From: a virus
Reading direction: 5' to 3' (one strand)
IMG/VR virus record: IMGVR_UViG_3300034104_005002
Coordinates: 1-64,000 of that record
Length of the DNA stretch: 64,000 bases
How positions within the stretch are numbered: position 1 is the first letter of the stretch; each line of letters opens with the position of its first letter. Both the position numbers and the translations under genes were made by a program. The notes beneath the pieces are model-generated. The model had not been told where the DNA came from and ran no database searches. It saw only the letters and a program-made list of their open reading frames with translations. This document shows, one piece after another, positions 3,396-50,557 of the stretch.

Positions 3396-5735
3396 TCACT
3401 CTGCTTTAGCGAAGAAATTGTGCAAGCATTGGCTTGCATTAATTCTTACATGCTCAAGAGTATAATCAACCAAAAGTTGACCATTCTCATAAATAGTTAC
3501 TAACTCGTCTTTATTCCAGGGTCTTTCTGGAACAGTCTGATATTCTCCTTGTTCATTTTTGATGAGCTGAAGTCTACCTTTTTTAGATGTTTTGCCTGGG
3601 TCGGTTACAGGGTCTTTATAAACGTCACGCCAGGTTCCGTTTACATTTACCGAACTGCACTTCATTGCGAATTTAAAATCATCACGATTTACGTGTTGAA
3701 GCAATCCGCCACCTTGACCGAAGGCAATGTTATCCGAACTGTATCCATTTGCTTCTAGAACGTGAAGAACCCGGTCAATAGTTTCATAATTCACACCGTC
3801 CCCTTGAATGAGTCTGACGTGATTTAGAACCTTATAACCCTTAGAGTTCATAGTACTTCCAAAGTGATTATCCAAAAGTTGGGCGCACTTTAGATTGACT
3901 TCTACTGGGTCCCCAGAATTACCAGAAACCGCGATTCCCCTATTCCTTTTTACTAGAACCATTCCACTAGGAACTTTAACGCAATGTATAGTTCCTTTAT
4001 AATTTACTTTAGTTTTAGTAATAGATTGCCCACCAGCATAGGGAGTATCTAATATGTGGGTAGTATAGACTGTAGAGAAATGTGGTTTTCTATTGTCCTC
4101 CGCTACTGAAATTAAAACCCCCTTCCCAGCTGAAATAGAAATGTATTCTACTACATCCACGTTAGATTTGATAGTGGTATCATACTTAAATCTACCATCG
4201 TTTCTAATGGACGAATCCCAATGCTTCAATTCTTCGATGAATTGTTCACACCAATTGCCATCTAAATTAGAAATGTCAACCCAATCAAATGTTTTAGATA
4301 CTAAATTATCTATGGGAACTGAAATAGTTATAGTAGATTGACCTTTTCTACTAGTAAGATAATACACATTAAATTTATAATCTAGATTATTAAGTATATT
4401 AAGTAATCTGTTGTGCTTTCGTTCCTTTTGAAAATTAAATTCTATTTTATAATTCATTGAAGATGCTTTTTTAATACATCCATCTGCTTGTAGAGCGATT
4501 AAAAATCTCTCATGCCAAGTTAGTTGTTTTCCGGATGTCTTTGCTTTTGCTGAACGCAATTTTCTATAAGCCCAATTTCCTGGTTTATAATCTTGAGCCT
4601 CTTGTATACGAATTTTATCATTTCGATCAATAGTTACCACCCTATGATTGGGTGTAACTAATAGATCAATTTTACCATGAAAATCACGAATTTCATACAT
4701 ATCCCCCTCATATTGTTCATTTACAATTTTAAGAGGTTTAACAAATTCATAAGTCATGTCATCATTAACTTGTGCAACTAGATCGTTCTCTGTTAGGTTA
4801 GAAAAATATTTCCATCCACTAGGAGTCAAAATCTGCGTCTGATCGTCGTAGCAATCAGGCCTGACCACCAAGGTAGCCCCAGATTCAATTACTTGTTCTT
4901 TAAGTTCTTCTCCCCAAAGTTTATCGCAAGCATTGTAGATGTCATAACTATCACTTACACAAGCAATAATAGCACCCGGCCTCGCATAAAGATTCAACAT
5001 ATTACGATATGCCTCTACTTCATTTTCCTTACCCCAACTCGTGATAGTACTATGTTCTGATGCTGGAATACTGTAGCCCGCCATATCTTCGTGATAAAAT
5101 TCTTTACCATAAAGAAGCGCCGCAACAGTGTCGGTGCCCTTAAAATTAACTAGGTGAGCTAGTCCACCAATTCCTGCTGATTCATAAGAACTCACTCCGC
5201 GAAATCCAAAGTCTTGCATCTTAAAATCAATGAGATTCGGGTCTCCATTGCGGATAAGATAATTGAGAATAAGTTTCTTAGAATTATAAGAATTACTTGC
5301 AACAGTCGTTGGATACCAAATTGCGCGAAGTAGAGCAGTCTCTAAGAAACTAGTTAACCAATAGCAATTTGGGTCGGTATTTTCAATTGTAAGCAAAACA
5401 TTCTTGACAGGAATTACCATTCCTTCTGGAACAGCCTTGATTCTTACGGGGAGATATCCACCGTGCTTTTTGACAATGTATTCCCAACCACCGCGGTAGA
5501 AAGGTTCACCGTGAGCCTGAATAATTGCCTCGGCAATATCAATATCTTCCATCCTAATTGGTTTCATCAGATAGTCTTTTAGAAACATCTGAAGGCCAAA
5601 GAATAGCGTTTCATCGTGATGACCACCACGACTTTCAATGTAAGAAAATACACCTTCCGTCTGTGTGGGATATTGTGGAAACTGAGAATACTTATAGGAA
5701 TCCGAGTTGAGCAGTAAATTTTTGTTTAGGTCCAT
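3396..5735 (-). CDS. nadV: Nicotinamide phosphoribosyltransferase (NAMPT/NadV) precursor containing an intein
   Basis: DSYKYS, DFGFRG, IPASEHS, VSDSYD, split RPD|SGD, IQGDG, FGQGGGLL and KDPVTDPGKTSKKG motifs. Confidence 0.95.
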   Translation of the reverse strand: MDLNKNLLLNSDSYKYSQFPQYPTQTEGVFSYIESRGGHHDETLFFGLQMFLKDYLMKPIRMEDIDIAEAIIQAHGEPFYRGGWEYIVKKHGGYLPVRIKAVPEGMVIPVKNVLLTIENTDPNCYWLTSFLETALLRAIWYPTTVASNSYNSKKLILNYLIRNGDPNLIDFKMQDFGFRGVSSYESAGIGGLAHLVNFKGTDTVAALLYGKEFYHEDMAGYSIPASEHSTITSWGKENEVEAYRNMLNLYARPGAIIACVSDSYDIYNACDKLWGEELKEQVIESGATLVVRPDCYDDQTQILTPSGWKYFSNLTENDLVAQVNDDMTYEFVKPLKIVNEQYEGDMYEIRDFHGKIDLLVTPNHRVVTIDRNDKIRIQEAQDYKPGNWAYRKLRSAKAKTSGKQLTWHERFLIALQADGCIKKASSMNYKIEFNFQKERKHNRLLNILNNLDYKFNVYYLTSRKGQSTITISVPIDNLVSKTFDWVDISNLDGNWCEQFIEELKHWDSSIRNDGRFKYDTTIKSNVDVVEYISISAGKGVLISVAEDNRKPHFSTVYTTHILDTPYAGGQSITKTKVNYKGTIHCVKVPSGMVLVKRNRGIAVSGNSGDPVEVNLKCAQLLDNHFGSTMNSKGYKVLNHVRLIQGDGVNYETIDRVLHVLEANGYSSDNIAFGQGGGLLQHVNRDDFKFAMKCSSVNVNGTWRDVYKDPVTDPGKTSKKGRLQLIKNEQGEYQTVPERPWNKDELVTIYENGQLLVDYTLEHVRINASQCLHNFFAKAE
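3918..4853 (-). mobile_element. Cis intein (312 aa) with LAGLIDADG-like endonuclease domain in NAMPT
   Basis: Starts CYDDQTQILT, block B VTPNHRV, LIALQADG, ends HCVKVPSG...SGN before Ser+1; removing it restores RPDSGDP. Confidence 0.92.
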
Positions 5736-5737
5736 TT

Positions 5738-5780
5738 TAAACTCCTTAAAATGATAGGTTTAATTTCGGCGTCTATCGCC
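5738..5780 (-). promoter_or_regulatory. Candidate RNA leader element upstream of nadV (GGCG-ATAGA-CGCC hairpin plus TAAGGAGTTTA RBS)
   Basis: Same loop, same RBS 11-mer and same loop-to-RBS spacing as the nadM leader. Confidence 0.55.
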
Positions 5781-5812
5781 TAGTTGTGTTTTTATGACTT
5801 TAACACCTGTCA

Positions 5813-6304
5813 TTAGGGTTGATATTCAACCACAGTTACGTCAGCATAATCAGAAACATCTTCTGAAAACTGTTCAATCATTTTGGAAATTCTACTCCAA
5901 TCGCCACCAGCAAGTCCAGCGCCAATTTGAGGGAATCCAATGCTTACTTTTCTATGTGGTCCCTGTGTATAATCAGGGACACATTTAGAAAATAACTCTA
6001 AGAATTTTTCAAAGGCACCATATTCAAATACATCTTTAGTATTACTCATTTCATACTGAGTGTAGGCATTTATCACAGTAAAAATTGTTTTTCCTGTGTT
6101 TATTTGAGCCGTAGTAAACCTACCCAACTTTAATTTATCCCCCCTAGTTGTACACATATCCGCTTGTTTTACTTTGGGATATCGGTCTGCAAGTTGTTTT
6201 GCCAACCCCCCACCCATAACATTATAGCAGTTACAACCTTGAATAATAATATCAAAATTACCTTTTTCGGCAAGTTTAATTAGATCTCCTTTGATTGTTT
6301 TCAT
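5813..6304 (-). CDS. Macro domain protein (ADP-ribose binding or hydrolysis)
   Basis: IKGDLI, QGCNC..MGGGLAK, NAYTQ and FPQIGAGLAGGDW motifs. Confidence 0.9.
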   Translation of the reverse strand: MKTIKGDLIKLAEKGNFDIIIQGCNCYNVMGGGLAKQLADRYPKVKQADMCTTRGDKLKLGRFTTAQINTGKTIFTVINAYTQYEMSNTKDVFEYGAFEKFLELFSKCVPDYTQGPHRKVSIGFPQIGAGLAGGDWSRISKMIEQFSEDVSDYADVTVVEYQP

Positions 6305-6313
6305 AAGTTTACC

Positions 6314-7360
6314 TCAGATAAAATATCGAATAATTTGATAATGGTCTTCAAAGCACTCTCTTGGGTCAAGTTCAGAGAAAGGAATCCAGAATGCCTTATC
6401 AGCATCAGAACCACCTTTTACTCTTGGAAGTTCTCCATCAGGAAGAACAATATTAAAGGCATGAGTAATTGTTCGCCCTCGGCTGCTTCTATAAATATCA
6501 TCAAATACATGAGTATTTTTAATACATCCACGAAGAACCGGAGAAGGAACCTTAAGTCCGGTTTCCTCTCGGAGTTCTCGAATCATAGCATCTTCTAGGG
6601 AGGAATCGGTGTTTGCGTCTAGAAAACCGCCTGGCAAGGCAATCAGGCCCTTTCCAGGATAGGCATTTCTACGGACCATCAAGACATGACCAGATTGAAA
6701 CACTACAGAATCTACTGTAACAAAAATTGGTGGCCAGGGCAAGGAAGCATACTGAGACTTATATTTCTCGACAAATCTACGCTCATTTACGATATGATTA
6801 TGCCATTCAGAACTCTTCATACTATCAAGATAGTTAAAGATTTTTTCTGGAACAACACTCTTTACAAAATCCATATTAGGTTCTTCGACAAAGTAGAGTT
6901 CCCTGATCTGAGTTGCACTTAGATTTTGCTCAAGAGGAACCTCAATTAGTTCCCATTGTGGGAACATCTTCAGGTAATAAGAAGTCTCGTCTTTTTCACA
7001 ACCGATGATACCAACATTAGCAGATGGTGAAATAGTCTCAAGACAATATTTTACCTTTTCTTGAACTTCATTACACCACTTGGTATCACCATAAATATCT
7101 TCTTGAATTTCAATTTCTAGTGGAGCTTCTTCTGAAGTCACTTCTAAAATGGATTGCCTCAAGGCAGACCAGTAACTATGAGTATTCAGGTGCTCAAGAG
7201 AAATTTGAAATGGATTTTTGTAGGTTACTGGTTTATACTGAGAACCAATAATCATAATGAGATTATCAGTCAGTTCATATGCTCTTTTTACAATTTCTAG
7301 ATGAGCATTATGAAAAGGCTGAAATCTTCCAATAAAAACAATTGCGTCGTATTTTTTCAT
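6314..7360 (-). CDS. nadM: Bifunctional NMN adenylyltransferase / Nudix ADP-ribose pyrophosphatase (NadM-Nudix)
   Basis: IGRFQPFHNAH (HxGH-like), LSATQIR, Nudix box GGF...AMIRELREETGL, RSSRGRTITHA. Confidence 0.93.
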   Translation of the reverse strand: MKKYDAIVFIGRFQPFHNAHLEIVKRAYELTDNLIMIIGSQYKPVTYKNPFQISLEHLNTHSYWSALRQSILEVTSEEAPLEIEIQEDIYGDTKWCNEVQEKVKYCLETISPSANVGIIGCEKDETSYYLKMFPQWELIEVPLEQNLSATQIRELYFVEEPNMDFVKSVVPEKIFNYLDSMKSSEWHNHIVNERRFVEKYKSQYASLPWPPIFVTVDSVVFQSGHVLMVRRNAYPGKGLIALPGGFLDANTDSSLEDAMIRELREETGLKVPSPVLRGCIKNTHVFDDIYRSSRGRTITHAFNIVLPDGELPRVKGGSDADKAFWIPFSELDPRECFEDHYQIIRYFI

Positions 7361-7365
7361 GATTC

Positions 7366-7412
7366 TAAACTCCTTAGAATTAATTTGGTTTTTAGGAAAT
7401 CTATTTTCCTAA
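7366..7412 (-). promoter_or_regulatory. Candidate RNA leader element upstream of nadM (TTAGGAAA-ATAGA-TTTCCTAA hairpin plus TAAGGAGTTTA RBS)
   Basis: 8-bp perfect stem with ATAGA loop; mirrors the nadV leader. Confidence 0.55.
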
Positions 7413-7481
7413 GGTGCCTCTTTTTGAGGACCCTCCTAGTATATAGGAGGGATTTTCTGAATTTGTCGGGTTATGTGCCAG

Positions 7482-15817: not shown

Positions 15818-17518
15818 TTAAATCTCAACTACTTCGTCATCTTCATTCAATTCATAAACTCGCTTCCAGATAGTGGAACCATTTTCTAGTCGAACCAAAA
15901 ACTTATGATTGGGTGTACACTTAATCACTTTACCATTTTCAAAGGTAATAGTCGCAACTTCTTTATTTCCATTGAAATAAAGTTTATCAACTTCTTTGTA
16001 TCCATCTTGAGTTTCAACTGTAATAGTCTTGTTCAGGTCATACCAGCCGATTGCATCATTTTCCTCAATCCCTCTCCAATCAAGTCCACCATATTCGGCA
16101 ATTTGATGGAAGTCCATTTCCCCGGTAGAAGTTTTAATCTTATGTTCCCAAAAAAGGCAACTCTCCGTTGGGGGTTGAGAGGAGAGTGTAGTATGGCGAA
16201 GACCATGTTCTAAAATATCCTGACGAAGTTGTTCCCAGTCATGAGTATATTCTACATCACAAATTTCATCAACTTCTTTCTTATAAGTATCAATTGGAAG
16301 AATTCCATCAGAATACTTAGTGTGTTTAAAGTTGTCACATGCACCCTTTTCTTTTGCTAGATTATTGGATGATTTTAGAAGATAATACTGAAAACTTTCA
16401 GTTAATTTGTGGACGGCTTCCCAGGCGCCAGGATCAGAATATTTAAATCCCAATTTAGCAAGATAATGAGCCAGACCAATATAACCAATACCTAGAGAAC
16501 GACTAGCCTTGGTTGTTAATTCGGCGGCCTTAACAGGATATTCCTGGTGGTCAATTAGCTCATCTAAAAATCTAACGGAAAGATCACAACATTCTTCAAG
16601 TTCTTTATCAGACTTAATTGTACCTACATTAACACAAGAAAGAATACAAAGAGCAATAGATCCATCTACATCATCAATATGTTCAATCGGGGTAGTTTTC
16701 AGCAAAATTTCCATACAAAGATTACTCATTGTAATCTGATCCTTAAAAGGACCGTGCGAATTACAATGATCAATATTCATAAGATAAATTCGACCGGTCT
16801 CCGCACGCTCTTTCAAGATATCAATAATAAGCTCTTGGGCCTTTACTTTTTTCTTTGGAATAGAAGGATCATTTTCATACTTTACATAAAGTTCATCAAA
16901 TCCATCTAAACCAAATTTTTCATAAAGACCTGGAACATTATGCGGTGAAAACAGAGTAATTTCTCCATCCTGAATAAATCGCTCATAAAAAATTTTACTC
17001 AGCTGAATGGCATAATCAAGGTTGCGAACACGATTATCTTCTGAGCCTTTATTATTTTTTAATACAATAATATCCTCGATTTCTTGGTGCCACACAGGAA
17101 AAAATACTGTGGATGAATTATGAGTTAAAGTAAATTTTCCATTTTTGCCGACAAAATAGTTGTGATATTTATCAACAGTAAAATCATAAAAAGTTTTATC
17201 ACAATTAGATTTATAATTATGATCATTTAAAATGTCAATATAATCACCATAAACCCCTAATCCAAAAATGTTGTCGATTTCCCGTGAGTCCACCCATTTC
17301 TTATTAAGTCCATCATAAAAAGGATGAATACTAGAAGTATAAACAACCTCCCCACCAATAAGAATTTCTTCCTGATATTCTTTTTTTATTGTTGGAGTAA
17401 ATAAATTTGTTACATTTCCAACACAAAATTTATCATCAAATTCGTTATAACAATAGACTCTATCTCCAACGGAGACATCTGAAATTCTTTTCTTTGCCAG
17501 ATTAATTTTAATTTCCAT
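15818..17518 (-). CDS. nrdA: NrdA fragment 2 (catalytic middle 319 aa) flanked by IntC1 at the N-terminus and IntN2 at the C-terminus
   Basis: ..THN|SSTVFFPVWHQEIED, ERAETGRIY, MSNLCMEI, LCILS, RSLGIG, QPPTES|CLFWEH. Confidence 0.93.
   Translation of the reverse strand: MEIKINLAKKRISDVSVGDRVYCYNEFDDKFCVGNVTNLFTPTIKKEYQEEILIGGEVVYTSSIHPFYDGLNKKWVDSREIDNIFGLGVYGDYIDILNDHNYKSNCDKTFYDFTVDKYHNYFVGKNGKFTLTHNSSTVFFPVWHQEIEDIIVLKNNKGSEDNRVRNLDYAIQLSKIFYERFIQDGEITLFSPHNVPGLYEKFGLDGFDELYVKYENDPSIPKKKVKAQELIIDILKERAETGRIYLMNIDHCNSHGPFKDQITMSNLCMEILLKTTPIEHIDDVDGSIALCILSCVNVGTIKSDKELEECCDLSVRFLDELIDHQEYPVKAAELTTKASRSLGIGYIGLAHYLAKLGFKYSDPGAWEAVHKLTESFQYYLLKSSNNLAKEKGACDNFKHTKYSDGILPIDTYKKEVDEICDVEYTHDWEQLRQDILEHGLRHTTLSSQPPTESCLFWEHKIKTSTGEMDFHQIAEYGGLDWRGIEENDAIGWYDLNKTITVETQDGYKEVDKLYFNGNKEVATITFENGKVIKCTPNHKFLVRLENGSTIWKRVYELNEDDEVVEI
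15821..16159 (-). mobile_element. Split intein 2, N-fragment (113 aa)
   Basis: Starts CLFWEHKI, block B CTPNHKFL, ends W....L..DD.V at a stop codon. Confidence 0.92.
17117..17518 (-). mobile_element. Split intein 1, long C-fragment (134 aa)
   Basis: ISDVSVGDRV, block B TSSIHPFY, FYDFTVDKYHNYF, terminal THN before Ser+1. Confidence 0.9.
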
Positions 17519-46150: not shown

Positions 46151-47650
46151 ATGGACAATTTCAAAGAATTGGTTAAAGCCTCATGGAGTGATAAAAGTCT
46201 CTTTGCGTCGCTTGTAAAGAACAAAGAATTTGTTTCTGAATTAAGAAATCAAACTTTCTTTATGGATAAACAGTATGAAAAGATTCAAAACAAGCACCGG
46301 GCCTATGTTGTTCTGAATGACATCAAAAAAGTTCCTTTATGTGAATGTGGTTGTGGCCTAGCAGCCAACCTTAACTATACCTATCCAGAACAAGGATTTA
46401 GAAGATTTTATAATAATGACCACTCTTTAAAAGTAAAATCTCCAATCATTACAAAAGAGACTCTATATAATGAAAGAATTGTTGCTCAAAAATCAGTAGA
46501 CCAGATTGCAAGTGATCTAAAAACAAGTCCGGTCACGATCCGAAACAAACTTAAAGAATATGGCCTAGATAATCTTTTTGACGCAAGACAAAGAAATCTA
46601 AATGCCAATCGAATTCTTCAGTCCAAGGAAGAACTATCTGCTCTTTATAGTTCGGGTCTTAAAGTAGAAGAAGTTGCCGAACAATTAAATACCACAAAAG
46701 GAACCGTTTCTAGATGGATGCAGGTTCATGGAATTGAAACCAGAAGTTCAAATTCTTATGAAAGAAAAATCAAAAAGATTAGTAAAGAAGAAAATGAGAT
46801 TTATAATTGGTTGAAAACAATCTACAATAAAGAAATTCAACAATCTAATCGTTCTGTTCTTAATGGGAAAGAATTAGATCTTTATTTACCAGAAGATAAT
46901 CTGGCAATTGAGTATAATGGGTTATACTCTCATCTTTATCGTCCTTGGGAAGAAAAAGAATGTTTAATTAAAGGTCCTTCTTATCATTTACAGAAAACAA
47001 TAGAGTGTAGTAAAAATGAAATACAACTATTACAGTTTTATAGTGATGAGTGGAAATTTAAAAAAGAAATCGTTCAAAATATTATCAAAAGTAAATTGGG
47101 TCTAAATAAGAGACTTTATGCACGAAAATGTATTGTCAAAGAAATCGACGTTTCATTAAAGAATTCTTTTTTAAACCAAAATCATATTCAAAGAGAAGAC
47201 AAAAGTAAAATTAAACTGGGTCTTTTTTATGAGAATAAACTAGTTTGTGTAATGACTTTTTGTAATTCTAGATTTAATCGAAATTATCAGTGGGAACTTT
47301 CTAGGTTTGCCTGTCTCGGTGGAATTACTGTTGTTGGTGGATTTTCTAAGATGTTGAAGAATTTTATTGATTCTTATGGTGGTTCTATTGTAAGTTATGC
47401 TGATCGAAGAATTTCTAATGGTGATGTTTATAAGAAAAACGGTTTCAATTTAATTCATGTTAATGGGCCTTCTTATTTTTATGTCGATAAGAATTGTTTA
47501 GAGCGGCACAATCGAATGAAGTTTCAAAAGAAATTGATAGGGGCGTATGATTGTTCAGAGTATGAGAAGGCCAGAGAAATGGGATTTGAGAAAATTTGGG
47601 ACTGTGGGAGTCTTACTTATGGGTTGGGACCTTTCGGCCCTATAAATTAG
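46151..47650 (+). mobile_element. Hef-like homing endonuclease (HTH repeats, PD-(D/E)xK-like nuclease, GNAT-like C-domain)
   Basis: ELDLYLPE.NLAIEYNG, YARKC, FL..NHIQ, WELSRF, SYADRR, IWDCG; antisense to the flanking structural genes. Confidence 0.8.
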
Positions 47651-49390: not shown

Positions 49391-50557
49391 TCAATTTTTA
49401 GCTATCATTGAAGCCATTCTGAGATAACGATCCATTGAATTTGAGTAAGACTCAGGTGCAACAAATTCGGTATCTTCGGTTAGTACTTCAGAGTGAGCGA
49501 TTGGAGAGACATAATTCGCGGGGAAATAAGATTCCCGTAGAGTCTCTAGTTTTTCACGATAAAGATCTTCACCTTCAAACTCAACACTTTCGGCAAGTGA
49601 AGCGAGCTTTTCTTTCTGAGTTTCGGCTAGGCCCTCAGCAACATCATCAAAGATTCCATCAGCAACAGCCTCACAGAGACGCTTGCTAAGTTGAATATTT
49701 TTCTCAATTTGCTCGTTGAGTTTATCTTCCATTTCATCTAGTTTAGTCACCATGTTCTCAAGAACATCATATTTCTCATCAGGCATGGACACATAATGTT
49801 GCTCAAAAAGATTCTTGAGATTGACAAGGAATGACTCGGTGAGTTCTTCCTTGATTCCGCGAGTGATTACTAGCTGATTCTCATGCATCCACTCGTCTGC
49901 AACATATTCTAGGTAGGAATCAGCACGTTCCTGTAGTTCTTCGGCAATAGCCTGAACTTCTTCTTGAAGAGCCTGGGTATAGCTCTCTTCCAGAGATTCT
50001 TTGATCTCGGAGACTTTAGAACGAAGTGCGGCCTCAAAGATGGTCTTGGCCTTTTCTTTGAATTCTTCGGAAAGATCTTCGCCACCTACAAGAGCCTCGA
50101 CATCTTTATCAATGTCGAAGTCTTCTTTCATTTCATCTTCATCTTCGTCATCTTCTTTTTTCTTTTTCTTATCATGCTTTTCTTCATCTTCATCTTTTTC
50201 TTCATCATCTTCGCATGATTCCTCAGTTACGAGATCCTCTTCGTCATGCTCATCCTCTTCAGGAAGAGACATTTTTGACATTGCCACATCACCTTCTTGT
50301 GAACCTTTACGACCGCGAATAATCTCGGCAACTCGCTTAATGTTTGAAGCGGGATCCTTGAGTTTTGCGCTGTCGTCATCAGGCTTGGCATTTTCTGGAG
50401 TTGGGCCACCAAGATCTTCCCAGCTGCCTGTTTGACCATCAGGAATACCAGTGGTGAGTTTGGGCATTGGATCGCCTGGCTTGGCATTTGCATTCACCGC
50501 AGTCTTAGACTGGGGATTCTTTGCTTCCATTTCATCTAGTTGTTGCTTGCGAGCCAT
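49391..50557 (-). CDS. gp22: Prohead core scaffold protein (gp22)
   Basis: WEDLGGPTPEN, LSEEFKEKAKTIFEAA, YLEYVADEW. Confidence 0.95.
   Translation of the reverse strand: MARKQQLDEMEAKNPQSKTAVNANAKPGDPMPKLTTGIPDGQTGSWEDLGGPTPENAKPDDDSAKLKDPASNIKRVAEIIRGRKGSQEGDVAMSKMSLPEEDEHDEEDLVTEESCEDDEEKDEDEEKHDKKKKKEDDEDEDEMKEDFDIDKDVEALVGGEDLSEEFKEKAKTIFEAALRSKVSEIKESLEESYTQALQEEVQAIAEELQERADSYLEYVADEWMHENQLVITRGIKEELTESFLVNLKNLFEQHYVSMPDEKYDVLENMVTKLDEMEDKLNEQIEKNIQLSKRLCEAVADGIFDDVAEGLAETQKEKLASLAESVEFEGEDLYREKLETLRESYFPANYVSPIAHSEVLTEDTEFVAPESYSNSMDRYLRMASMIAKN

Follow-up and report, generated by a model that had tools for sequence, protein, structure and literature searches.

Introduction

Autogenous translational operators are typically short hairpins with a sequence-specific loop on a free stem, located beside or over the Shine-Dalgarno sequence (SD) and the start codon. 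Examples are those of Escherichia coli thrS, read by ThrRS, of gene 43 in phages T4 and RB69, read by the DNA polymerase, and of the phage MS2 replicase gene, read by the coat protein. Here, we describe an element that shares these traits and that would likewise exert its control at translation: a conserved 5' leader RNA of about 55 nt that precedes the nicotinamide adenine dinucleotide (NAD) salvage genes nadM-Nudix and nadV in a viral DNA stretch of 64,000 nt (positions 1 to 64,000 of IMG/VR record IMGVR_UViG_3300034104_005002; hereafter the window). Unlike the operators named above, one type of element here serves two or three separate cistrons of a single pathway, phages and bacteria that are only very distantly related carry it, and its reader is a candidate only. 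Judged by analogy, translational operators read by enzymes or phage proteins appear to be its closest functional relatives, while the closest analogue in layout would be the guanidine-II riboswitch.

The resemblance to guanidine-II (mini-ykkC) RNAs lies in a pair of short hairpins whose loops are conserved, in the free linker between them, and in an SD that is part of the second hairpin or adjoins it. The leader differs in that it lacks ACGR tetraloops, that its loops AUAGA and GGAGU are not self-complementary, and that the loop of its first hairpin varies between lineages. With the NAD+ riboswitches of class I (nadA, RF03013) and class II (pnuC motif) it shares a place before NAD-metabolism genes and an SD within the 3' structural element, but it matches neither in sequence or structure, has no bulged-stem domain and no pseudoknot, and serves nadV and nadM instead. 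PyrR, a phosphoribosyltransferase-fold enzyme that responds to nucleotides and phosphoribosyl pyrophosphate (PRPP), reads a purine-rich, AG-containing hairpin loop not unlike our first loop when the two are compared by sequence only; however, PyrR acts by transcription attenuation, and its conserved loop is longer. Finally, CsrA bridges an upstream loop and a loop at the SD in its two-site operators, a comparable arrangement, but it requires GGA twice, and the first hairpin of our leader has none.

The genes behind the leader form, together with a macro-domain gene, a NARP2-type NAD+ reconstitution module as described for phage KVP40. According to the NARP2 preprint, this pathway lets phages rebuild NAD+, defeating the NAD+-depleting defences Thoeris, DSR and SIR2-HerA. 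The same work describes the KVP40 operon as toxic to E. coli and the pathway as overproducing NAD+ at the cost of PRPP. This toxicity and cost provide a rationale for tight control. Neither the preprint nor our full-text literature searches yielded any mention of such a leader RNA, which would be the first regulatory layer described for NARP2 counter-defence.

A two-hairpin leader at the nadM and nadV start codons

A first-pass annotation of the window, made from its letters and open reading frames (ORFs), had reported hairpins with an AUAGA loop before both NAD-salvage genes. Their positions proved exact, and both lie on the minus strand, which is the mRNA strand. The two hairpins are the first elements (P1) of a conserved 5' leader that heads each of two translation units, nadM-Nudix with the macro-domain gene, and nadV.

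The complete nadM leader, consisting of P1, a linker, a second hairpin (P2) and the AUG, spans 7357..7413 on the minus strand, and its minimum-energy fold contains exactly two hairpins. P1 (7392..7412) reads UUAGGAAA-AUAGA-UUUCCUAA, with an 8-bp stem and the pentaloop at 7400-7404 closed by an A-U pair. The linker (7381..7391) is free of G and made up of A, C and U. P2 (7362..7380; about -4 kcal/mol) pairs AUUCUAA with UUAGAAU around the loop GGAGU and includes the SD AAGGAG (7370-7375); the AUG (7358-7360) starts 1 nt past its stem. The nadV leader is organised in the same way on the same strand (5729..5783) and also folds into two hairpins. Its P1 (5768..5780; -4.5 kcal/mol) pairs GGCG with CGCC around AUAGA (5772-5776) on a closing G-C pair, and its P2 (5733..5753) pairs CAUUUUAA with UUAAAAUG around GGAGU, with the SD at 5742-5747 and the AUG (5733-5735) inside the 3' arm. 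With a covariance model of the leader built from its relatives (R1; see below), the nadM site scored 49.1 bits (E 2e-8) and the nadV site 49.6 bits (E 1.6e-8). Both match the model over its full length and have the expected genes behind them, and we therefore count both as members of the family.

Behind both P1 hairpins, the annotation had also noted an A-rich stretch followed by a shared 11-mer, and this was borne out: TAAGGAGTTTA occurs at 7376..7366 before nadM (ATG at 7360) and at 5748..5738 before nadV (ATG at 5735). What had been overlooked is that this 11-mer forms the top of P2, around the SD and running into the AUG. The window contains three copies of it, whereas 0.06 would be expected; the one outside the leaders (30238, plus strand) lies antisense within the DNA polymerase gene. 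The reported spacing of 24 nt between loop and 11-mer is exact in both leaders; since the linker varies from 4 to 15 nt in relatives, the equal offset is incidental. The macro-domain gene between nadM and nadV indeed lacks the element, as it rides in the nadM operon, starting 9 nt behind the end of nadM.

Within the 161-kb genome of which the window is part, these two sites stand apart. An ATAGA loop on a stem of 4 bp or more occurs in 14 hairpins, of which only those before nadV and nadM are followed by an SD hairpin. Eleven gene starts carry a hairpin of at least 6 bp, with a strong SD inside it only at nadV, at nadM and at 50557; among these three, nadV and nadM have the longest stems. The next-best match to R1 (85361-85406) reached 21 bits and was rejected as a third leader because no ORF follows it. 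The contrast between 49 and 21 bits rules out a chance match.

Covariation and distribution of the leader

For a comparison that did not depend on the motif, we collected the upstream DNA of 53 viral NadM-Nudix homologues (32-100% identity), chosen by protein similarity only. Most of these regions carry a stem of unrelated sequence with the loop G-AUAGA-C, followed by a short linker and an SD hairpin. The exchange of stems is apparent even at close range: in loci L005 and L006, whose NadM proteins are 99.7-100% identical to that of the window, the P1 stem is GUGG/CCAC, while the loop is unchanged and P2 is identical. Covariation was then assessed in 40 leaders. These had been selected for the presence of stems, a choice that raises the paired fraction (91.9% of cells, compared to 55.5% in shuffles) but not the diversity of pair types. 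Double changes were found in 13 of the 14 pairs, in both stems, and the covariation score was 0.83, compared to 0.14 or less for slid registers.

We used R1 to search NadM-centred and NadV-centred loci as well as the genome. This gave about 200 matches in viral and bacterial contigs, all of which lie on the sense strand except for a single marginal one. NadM-centred loci contained 84 matches (83 on the sense strand), about 36 of them before nadM, 26 before nadV and 10 before small ORFs of unknown function. The 80 NadV-centred loci contained 112, every one on the sense strand, distributed over nadV (57), nadM (44) and small ORFs (11). In total, roughly 130 viral loci link the leader to nadM and nadV, and bacterial loci do so as well. 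The first-pass annotation had proposed a structured cis-regulatory RNA specific to NAD-salvage genes, and had made this dependent on the motif being present in homologous leaders and on covariation support. Both were found: the stems covary, the loop is kept as stems are swapped, and the association with nadM and nadV is consistent.

Bacterial copies were found in front of both genes, nadM and nadV, in Methylococcales, Methylophilaceae, Rhodocyclaceae, Piscinibacterium, Kordiimonas and Rhodospirillales, so that carriers span alpha-, beta- and gammaproteobacteria in addition to phages. Several of these copies were passed over by the speed filters of the search and are plain by eye. Where nadM and nadV share a bacterial operon, each of the two cistrons still comes with a leader of its own. 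The canonical form also occurs in cultured phages, before both genes in Synechococcus phage B23 and in Roseobacter phage DSS3P8. The NadM of phage B23 is also the closest cultured relative of the window's NadM, at 55% identity.

The small ORFs under the same leader usually lie directly upstream of nadM (for example L016:3229-3555, L016:3621-3992, L018:3645-4001 and L112:2587-2940). Their products belong to phrog_33851, to phrog_12218 (with a CxWNHTDxCGW motif) and to a 118-aa "SGGYPYWS" family, and these are probably further members of the NAD module. No member of the three families was found in the genome studied here.

The 171 distinct leaders gave a general picture of their anatomy. P1 is a stem of 4-11 bp and free sequence, topped by a pentaloop A-N-A-G-A that is usually closed by a G-C pair. 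The loop reads G-AUAGA-C in 132 leaders and AUAGA, with any closing pair, in about 145. Its second position is free (U, C or A), and positions 1 and 5 vary in concert (A..A or G..U). The linker has a median length of 10 nt within its range of 4-15 nt and consists of 43% A, 36% U, 16% C and 5% G. P2 comprises 5-8 AU-rich pairs around GGAG(U), with the AUG at or inside its 3' foot and with tips reading G[GAG]U, G[GAU]U, G[GAG]C or G[GAA]C. Its pairs include 110 G-U against 4 A-C. Exactly two hairpins were predicted in 160 of 163 folded leaders, with a median stability of -7.7 kcal/mol for the P1 half and -3.9 kcal/mol for the P2 half (quartiles -4.5 to -2.9). By these predicted energies, the stability of P2 is narrowly set near -4 kcal/mol.

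Comparison with known RNA families

We compared the leader to Rfam 15 by scanning the window at gathering thresholds, both leaders leniently (E up to 10, all 4227 models) and 16 related loci, and by searching the genome with the nadA model. The window, the two leaders and the 16 loci gave noise only, such as GP20-a at 14 bits or Spy490380c at 24 bits against a cut-off of 65. NAD+-I (RF03013) had no match at E up to 10 in the genome and was absent from the lenient scans of the leaders; these scans returned no NAD family at all, although the presence of a pnuC (NAD+-II) model in the library was not confirmed. The annotation had been unable to match the element to a named class, which agrees with the Rfam search, NAD+-I included, and the leader is an uncatalogued family without an Rfam entry.

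The annotation had further likened the layout to that of compact pseudoknot riboswitches, and here our results differ. Complements of the P1 loop (UCUAU and its 4-mers) are not enriched at any position from -60 to +160 nt in 135 leaders, and the linker is free in both length and sequence. Two stretches in the window could suggest a pseudoknot, UCUA in P2 before nadM and CUAUC in the linker before nadV, but both are peculiar to this lineage. Loop-loop kissing was rejected as well, as there are at most 2 complementary positions and no covariation between the loops. NAD+-II riboswitches have a pseudoknot between loop and SD tail, for which an enriched loop complement would be expected and was not seen. 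An H-type pseudoknot like that of PreQ1-I is disfavoured by a linker of 4-15 nt with no conserved sequence and by the missing loop complement, a comparison that concerns pairing only. Instead of the two ACGR tetraloops of guanidine-II, the leader has AUAGA and GGAGU, again with no Rfam match. A CsrA/RsmA operator has a GGA core in both sites, whereas here GGA occurs in P2 and P1 carries AUAGA, in the window as in most other leaders. An intrinsic terminator, lastly, does not fit the A-rich sequence behind both P1 hairpins, and a scan for the terminator consensus found none on the minus strand.

Possible modes of action

The location of the SD and AUG inside P2, the separate copy for each cistron and the strand-specific G-U pairs indicate an RNA-level element that concerns translation. 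In addition, a loop that is conserved while its stem varies freely is what characterises a recognition hairpin. Taking these features together, we consider the leader to be, with fair probability, a translational operator in which P2 serves as a weak clamp on the SD and AUG and P1 as a recognition hairpin, probably for a protein encoded by the module. We infer that it acts on translation initiation, and that the effect of its reader is negative. P2 alone, being weak, would only throttle ribosome entry; a trans-acting reader that recognises P1 and is thereby bound beside P2 would close or block the SD/AUG hairpin. The outcome would be feedback on two enzymes that drain PRPP and ATP. NadM-Nudix and NadV are oligomeric, nucleotide-binding enzymes. 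The most likely reader would be one of these two module proteins, possibly with the RNA competing with the enzyme's substrates, which would make the control autogenous.

The variants of the P1 loop bear directly on the nature of the reader. With the architecture preserved, P1 carries the loops GAUGUA and GUUGUA in Serratia phage BF, and GCGAA and GCGGA in E. coli phage EJP2; in each of these two variant phages, which have two P1 hairpins, the loops of both leaders are near-identical. In a group of lake phages, the loop is GUAGU or GCAGU before nadM, and P2 stands alone before nadV. A loop that varies by lineage and is near-identical within BF and within EJP2 suggests a reader that evolves along with the genome, and the lineage-specific loops lean towards a co-evolving protein over a universal ligand. 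Only nadM-Nudix and nadV always accompany the leader, and the small ORFs are absent here, which favours an operator read by one of the two enzymes. The products of phrog_33851, phrog_12218 and the SGGYPYWS family were considered as a universal reader and rejected on account of this absence.

A number of observations weigh against this reading. P1 is missing in KVP40-like phi-pp2, Klebsiella phage KP15, Cronobacter phage GAP161, Sinorhizobium phage phiN3 and Stenotrophomonas phage BUCT608, in all of which the nadM SD still lies in a short hairpin that ends at the AUG. Such P2-only lineages (KVP40-like phages, KP15, phiN3, and the nadV leader of the GUAGU group) imply that P1 is dispensable and may be accessory. 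Indeed, P2 is the constant part, and P1 is an accessory with a loop that stays the same within each lineage. Although loop types are unmixed in 70 of 70 loci with several leaders, this is a weak test, as AUAGA is so common; moreover, loop type tracks lineage, and shared ancestry alone could produce agreement within a genome. We found no feature of NadM that is peculiar to genomes with P1, and the invariant NadM block YLKMFPQW is also kept, in diverged form, in phages lacking it. Finally, nadM and nadV co-occur wherever the sequence is long enough, and the longer records with a nadV leader all have nadM elsewhere, so that gene presence cannot separate the two candidate readers.

Among the alternatives, a metabolite riboswitch survives best, although we regard it as unlikely. 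Much as in guanidine-II, the two hairpins would dock on an NAD-related ligand (NAD+, nicotinamide mononucleotide (NMN), nicotinamide, ADP-ribose or PRPP), stabilising P2 and turning translation off. A single metabolic pathway served in phages and in alpha-, beta- and gammaproteobacteria would suit a universal effector, guanidine-II sets a precedent with its two mini-hairpins, conserved loops, free linker and SD near P2, and the marginal, narrowly distributed stability of P2 is what a switchable platform would need. However, only about 12 nt are conserved, 5 of which are the SD, and the P1 loop has no pseudoknot partner across a linker that is free. The loops offer at most two complementary positions, and the changes in the P2 loop (GAG, GAU, GAA) are unmatched in P1. 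A P1 loop that depends on lineage, and a P1 that is missing in some, are unexpected for a ligand pocket, and no Rfam riboswitch family was matched. A more specific version, which we hold to be doubtful, is a new minimal riboswitch class that would close around an NAD-related metabolite such as an NAD+ cleavage product of host defence, so that counter-defence would be on only when the host attacks its own NAD+ pool.

Slightly less probable, and in our view also doubtful, is a leader that needs no factor at all, in which P1 would stabilise the mRNA 5' end, the linker would provide a ribosome standby or S1 site, and P2 would present or mildly mask the SD, together forming a portable constitutive throttle that travels with the genes. 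Consistent with this are the weakness of P2, the low G content of the linker, the existence of P2-only leaders, and the position of promoter-like elements. Many nadM leaders have a T4-type late element (TATAAATA or CTAAATA) or TATATAC whose end lies 2-10 nt upstream of P1, and sigma-70-like promoters precede several nadV leaders, so that P1 would usually sit at the 5' end of the mRNA. A stabiliser, however, needs no invariant loop, yet AUAGA outlasts the full replacement of its stem. In addition, P1 is not at the 5' end in the window or before internal cistrons, and other genes of the same genome do without this design. In the window, CTATATAC, which occurs once in the genome and looks like a promoter element, lies 26 nt upstream of the nadM P1. 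Part of it falls in the loop of one of two additional 5' structures of this leader (7417..7451, minus strand), an 8-bp hairpin at 7431-7451; the other is a mini-hairpin, CCUC-AAAAA-GAGG, at 7417-7429. In several relatives, whose NadM is only 43-55% identical to that of the window, TATATAC stands 2-8 nt before P1. No sigma-70 consensus was found directly upstream of either leader in the window. Genome-wide, the coding (minus) strand has 36 copies of CTAAATA and the other strand 7, a bias that fits a late promoter of the cyanophage type.

Control by a host global regulator of the CsrA/RsmA type, with a dimer bridging the upstream loop and the GGA loop at the SD, is very improbable. P2 does resemble an ideal CsrA site, with GGA in a short hairpin loop at the SD, and in some lineages P1 has GGAGU too. 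The dominant P1 loop, however, lacks the GGA core, and a global regulator would not account for the restriction to two genes. The leader is moreover found in a cyanophage and in alphaproteobacteria, settings in which CsrA is generally not known to occur. Least credible of all is the absence of any RNA regulator, with the hairpins arising by chance or serving as an intrinsic terminator or as a DNA operator, for instance for a repressor like NrtR, which controls bacterial nadV and nadM. The nadM P1 is a 21-bp palindrome with a 5-nt spacer, but variable arms around a conserved centre are the reverse of a dimer operator, the covariation pattern contradicts this reading, the excess of G-U over A-C pairs in P2 speaks against any DNA-level reading, no U-tract follows either hairpin, and the bit scores exclude chance.

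If the leader is a translational operator read by NadM or NadV, that enzyme would join the metabolic enzymes that moonlight as RNA-binding repressors, as a new example; if a metabolite is the reader, the leader would represent a new riboswitch class. In either case, the leader is a dedicated RNA control element absent from Rfam whose carriers range from cyanophages and jumbo phages to free-living proteobacteria. As a compact and portable part of 55 nt it is easy to test, and cultured carriers are available for both the canonical form (B23, DSS3P8) and the loop variants (BF, EJP2).

Genome context and minor observations

The source record is a T4-like myovirus with a G+C content of 37.7%, encoding a family-B DNA polymerase, tail sheath, portal and major head proteins, with most genes on the minus strand. 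On this strand, nadM-Nudix (6314..7360; 348 aa) encodes an NMN adenylyltransferase joined to an ADP-ribose pyrophosphatase, matching Pfam CTP_transf_like and NUDIX. The macro-domain gene (5813..6304, minus strand; 163 aa) has a weak match to Pfam Macro, its 20.3 bits being under the family's cut-off of 22 bits. The third gene, nadV (3396..5735, minus strand; 779 aa), encodes a nicotinamide phosphoribosyltransferase that contains an intein and matches Pfam NAMPT_N and, in two stretches, NAPRTase. The order nadM-macro-nadV recurs in about 45 of the 80 NadV-centred loci.

The intein is an in-frame insert of 311 aa at the conserved RPD|SG motif (3921-4853, minus strand). It begins with Cys, contains TPNH and ends in GN followed by Ser, with weak Pfam matches to Intein_splicing and LAGLIDADG; in an alignment, a nadV relative in L010 (467 aa, 96% identical) lacks it. 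In two other close relatives (L005:5927-6460 and L008:6482-7015), the nadV frame behind the leader ends at 178 aa, 93-97% identical to the N-terminus of the window's protein, which suggests that something else interrupts it there, for instance an intron, a homing-endonuclease gene or a frameshift. NadM of the window has a short divergent insert at about residues 55-75 (around QISLEHLNTHSYWSALRQSI), where its relatives have a conserved FT..ER..M.

Further away from the module, a ribonucleotide reductase large-subunit ORF (15818-17518, minus strand) has a C-terminal stretch that matches phrog_16259, a PHROG also matched by the phage's helicase, which makes the stretch a candidate mobile insert. 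A gene for an HNH homing endonuclease of 499 aa (46151-47650, plus strand) lies between the helicase and head genes, on the strand opposite to theirs. In a related phage contig, a GOLLD RNA (L031:7360-7794; 218.8 bits) lies beside tRNA genes, about 2.3 kb downstream of nadM.

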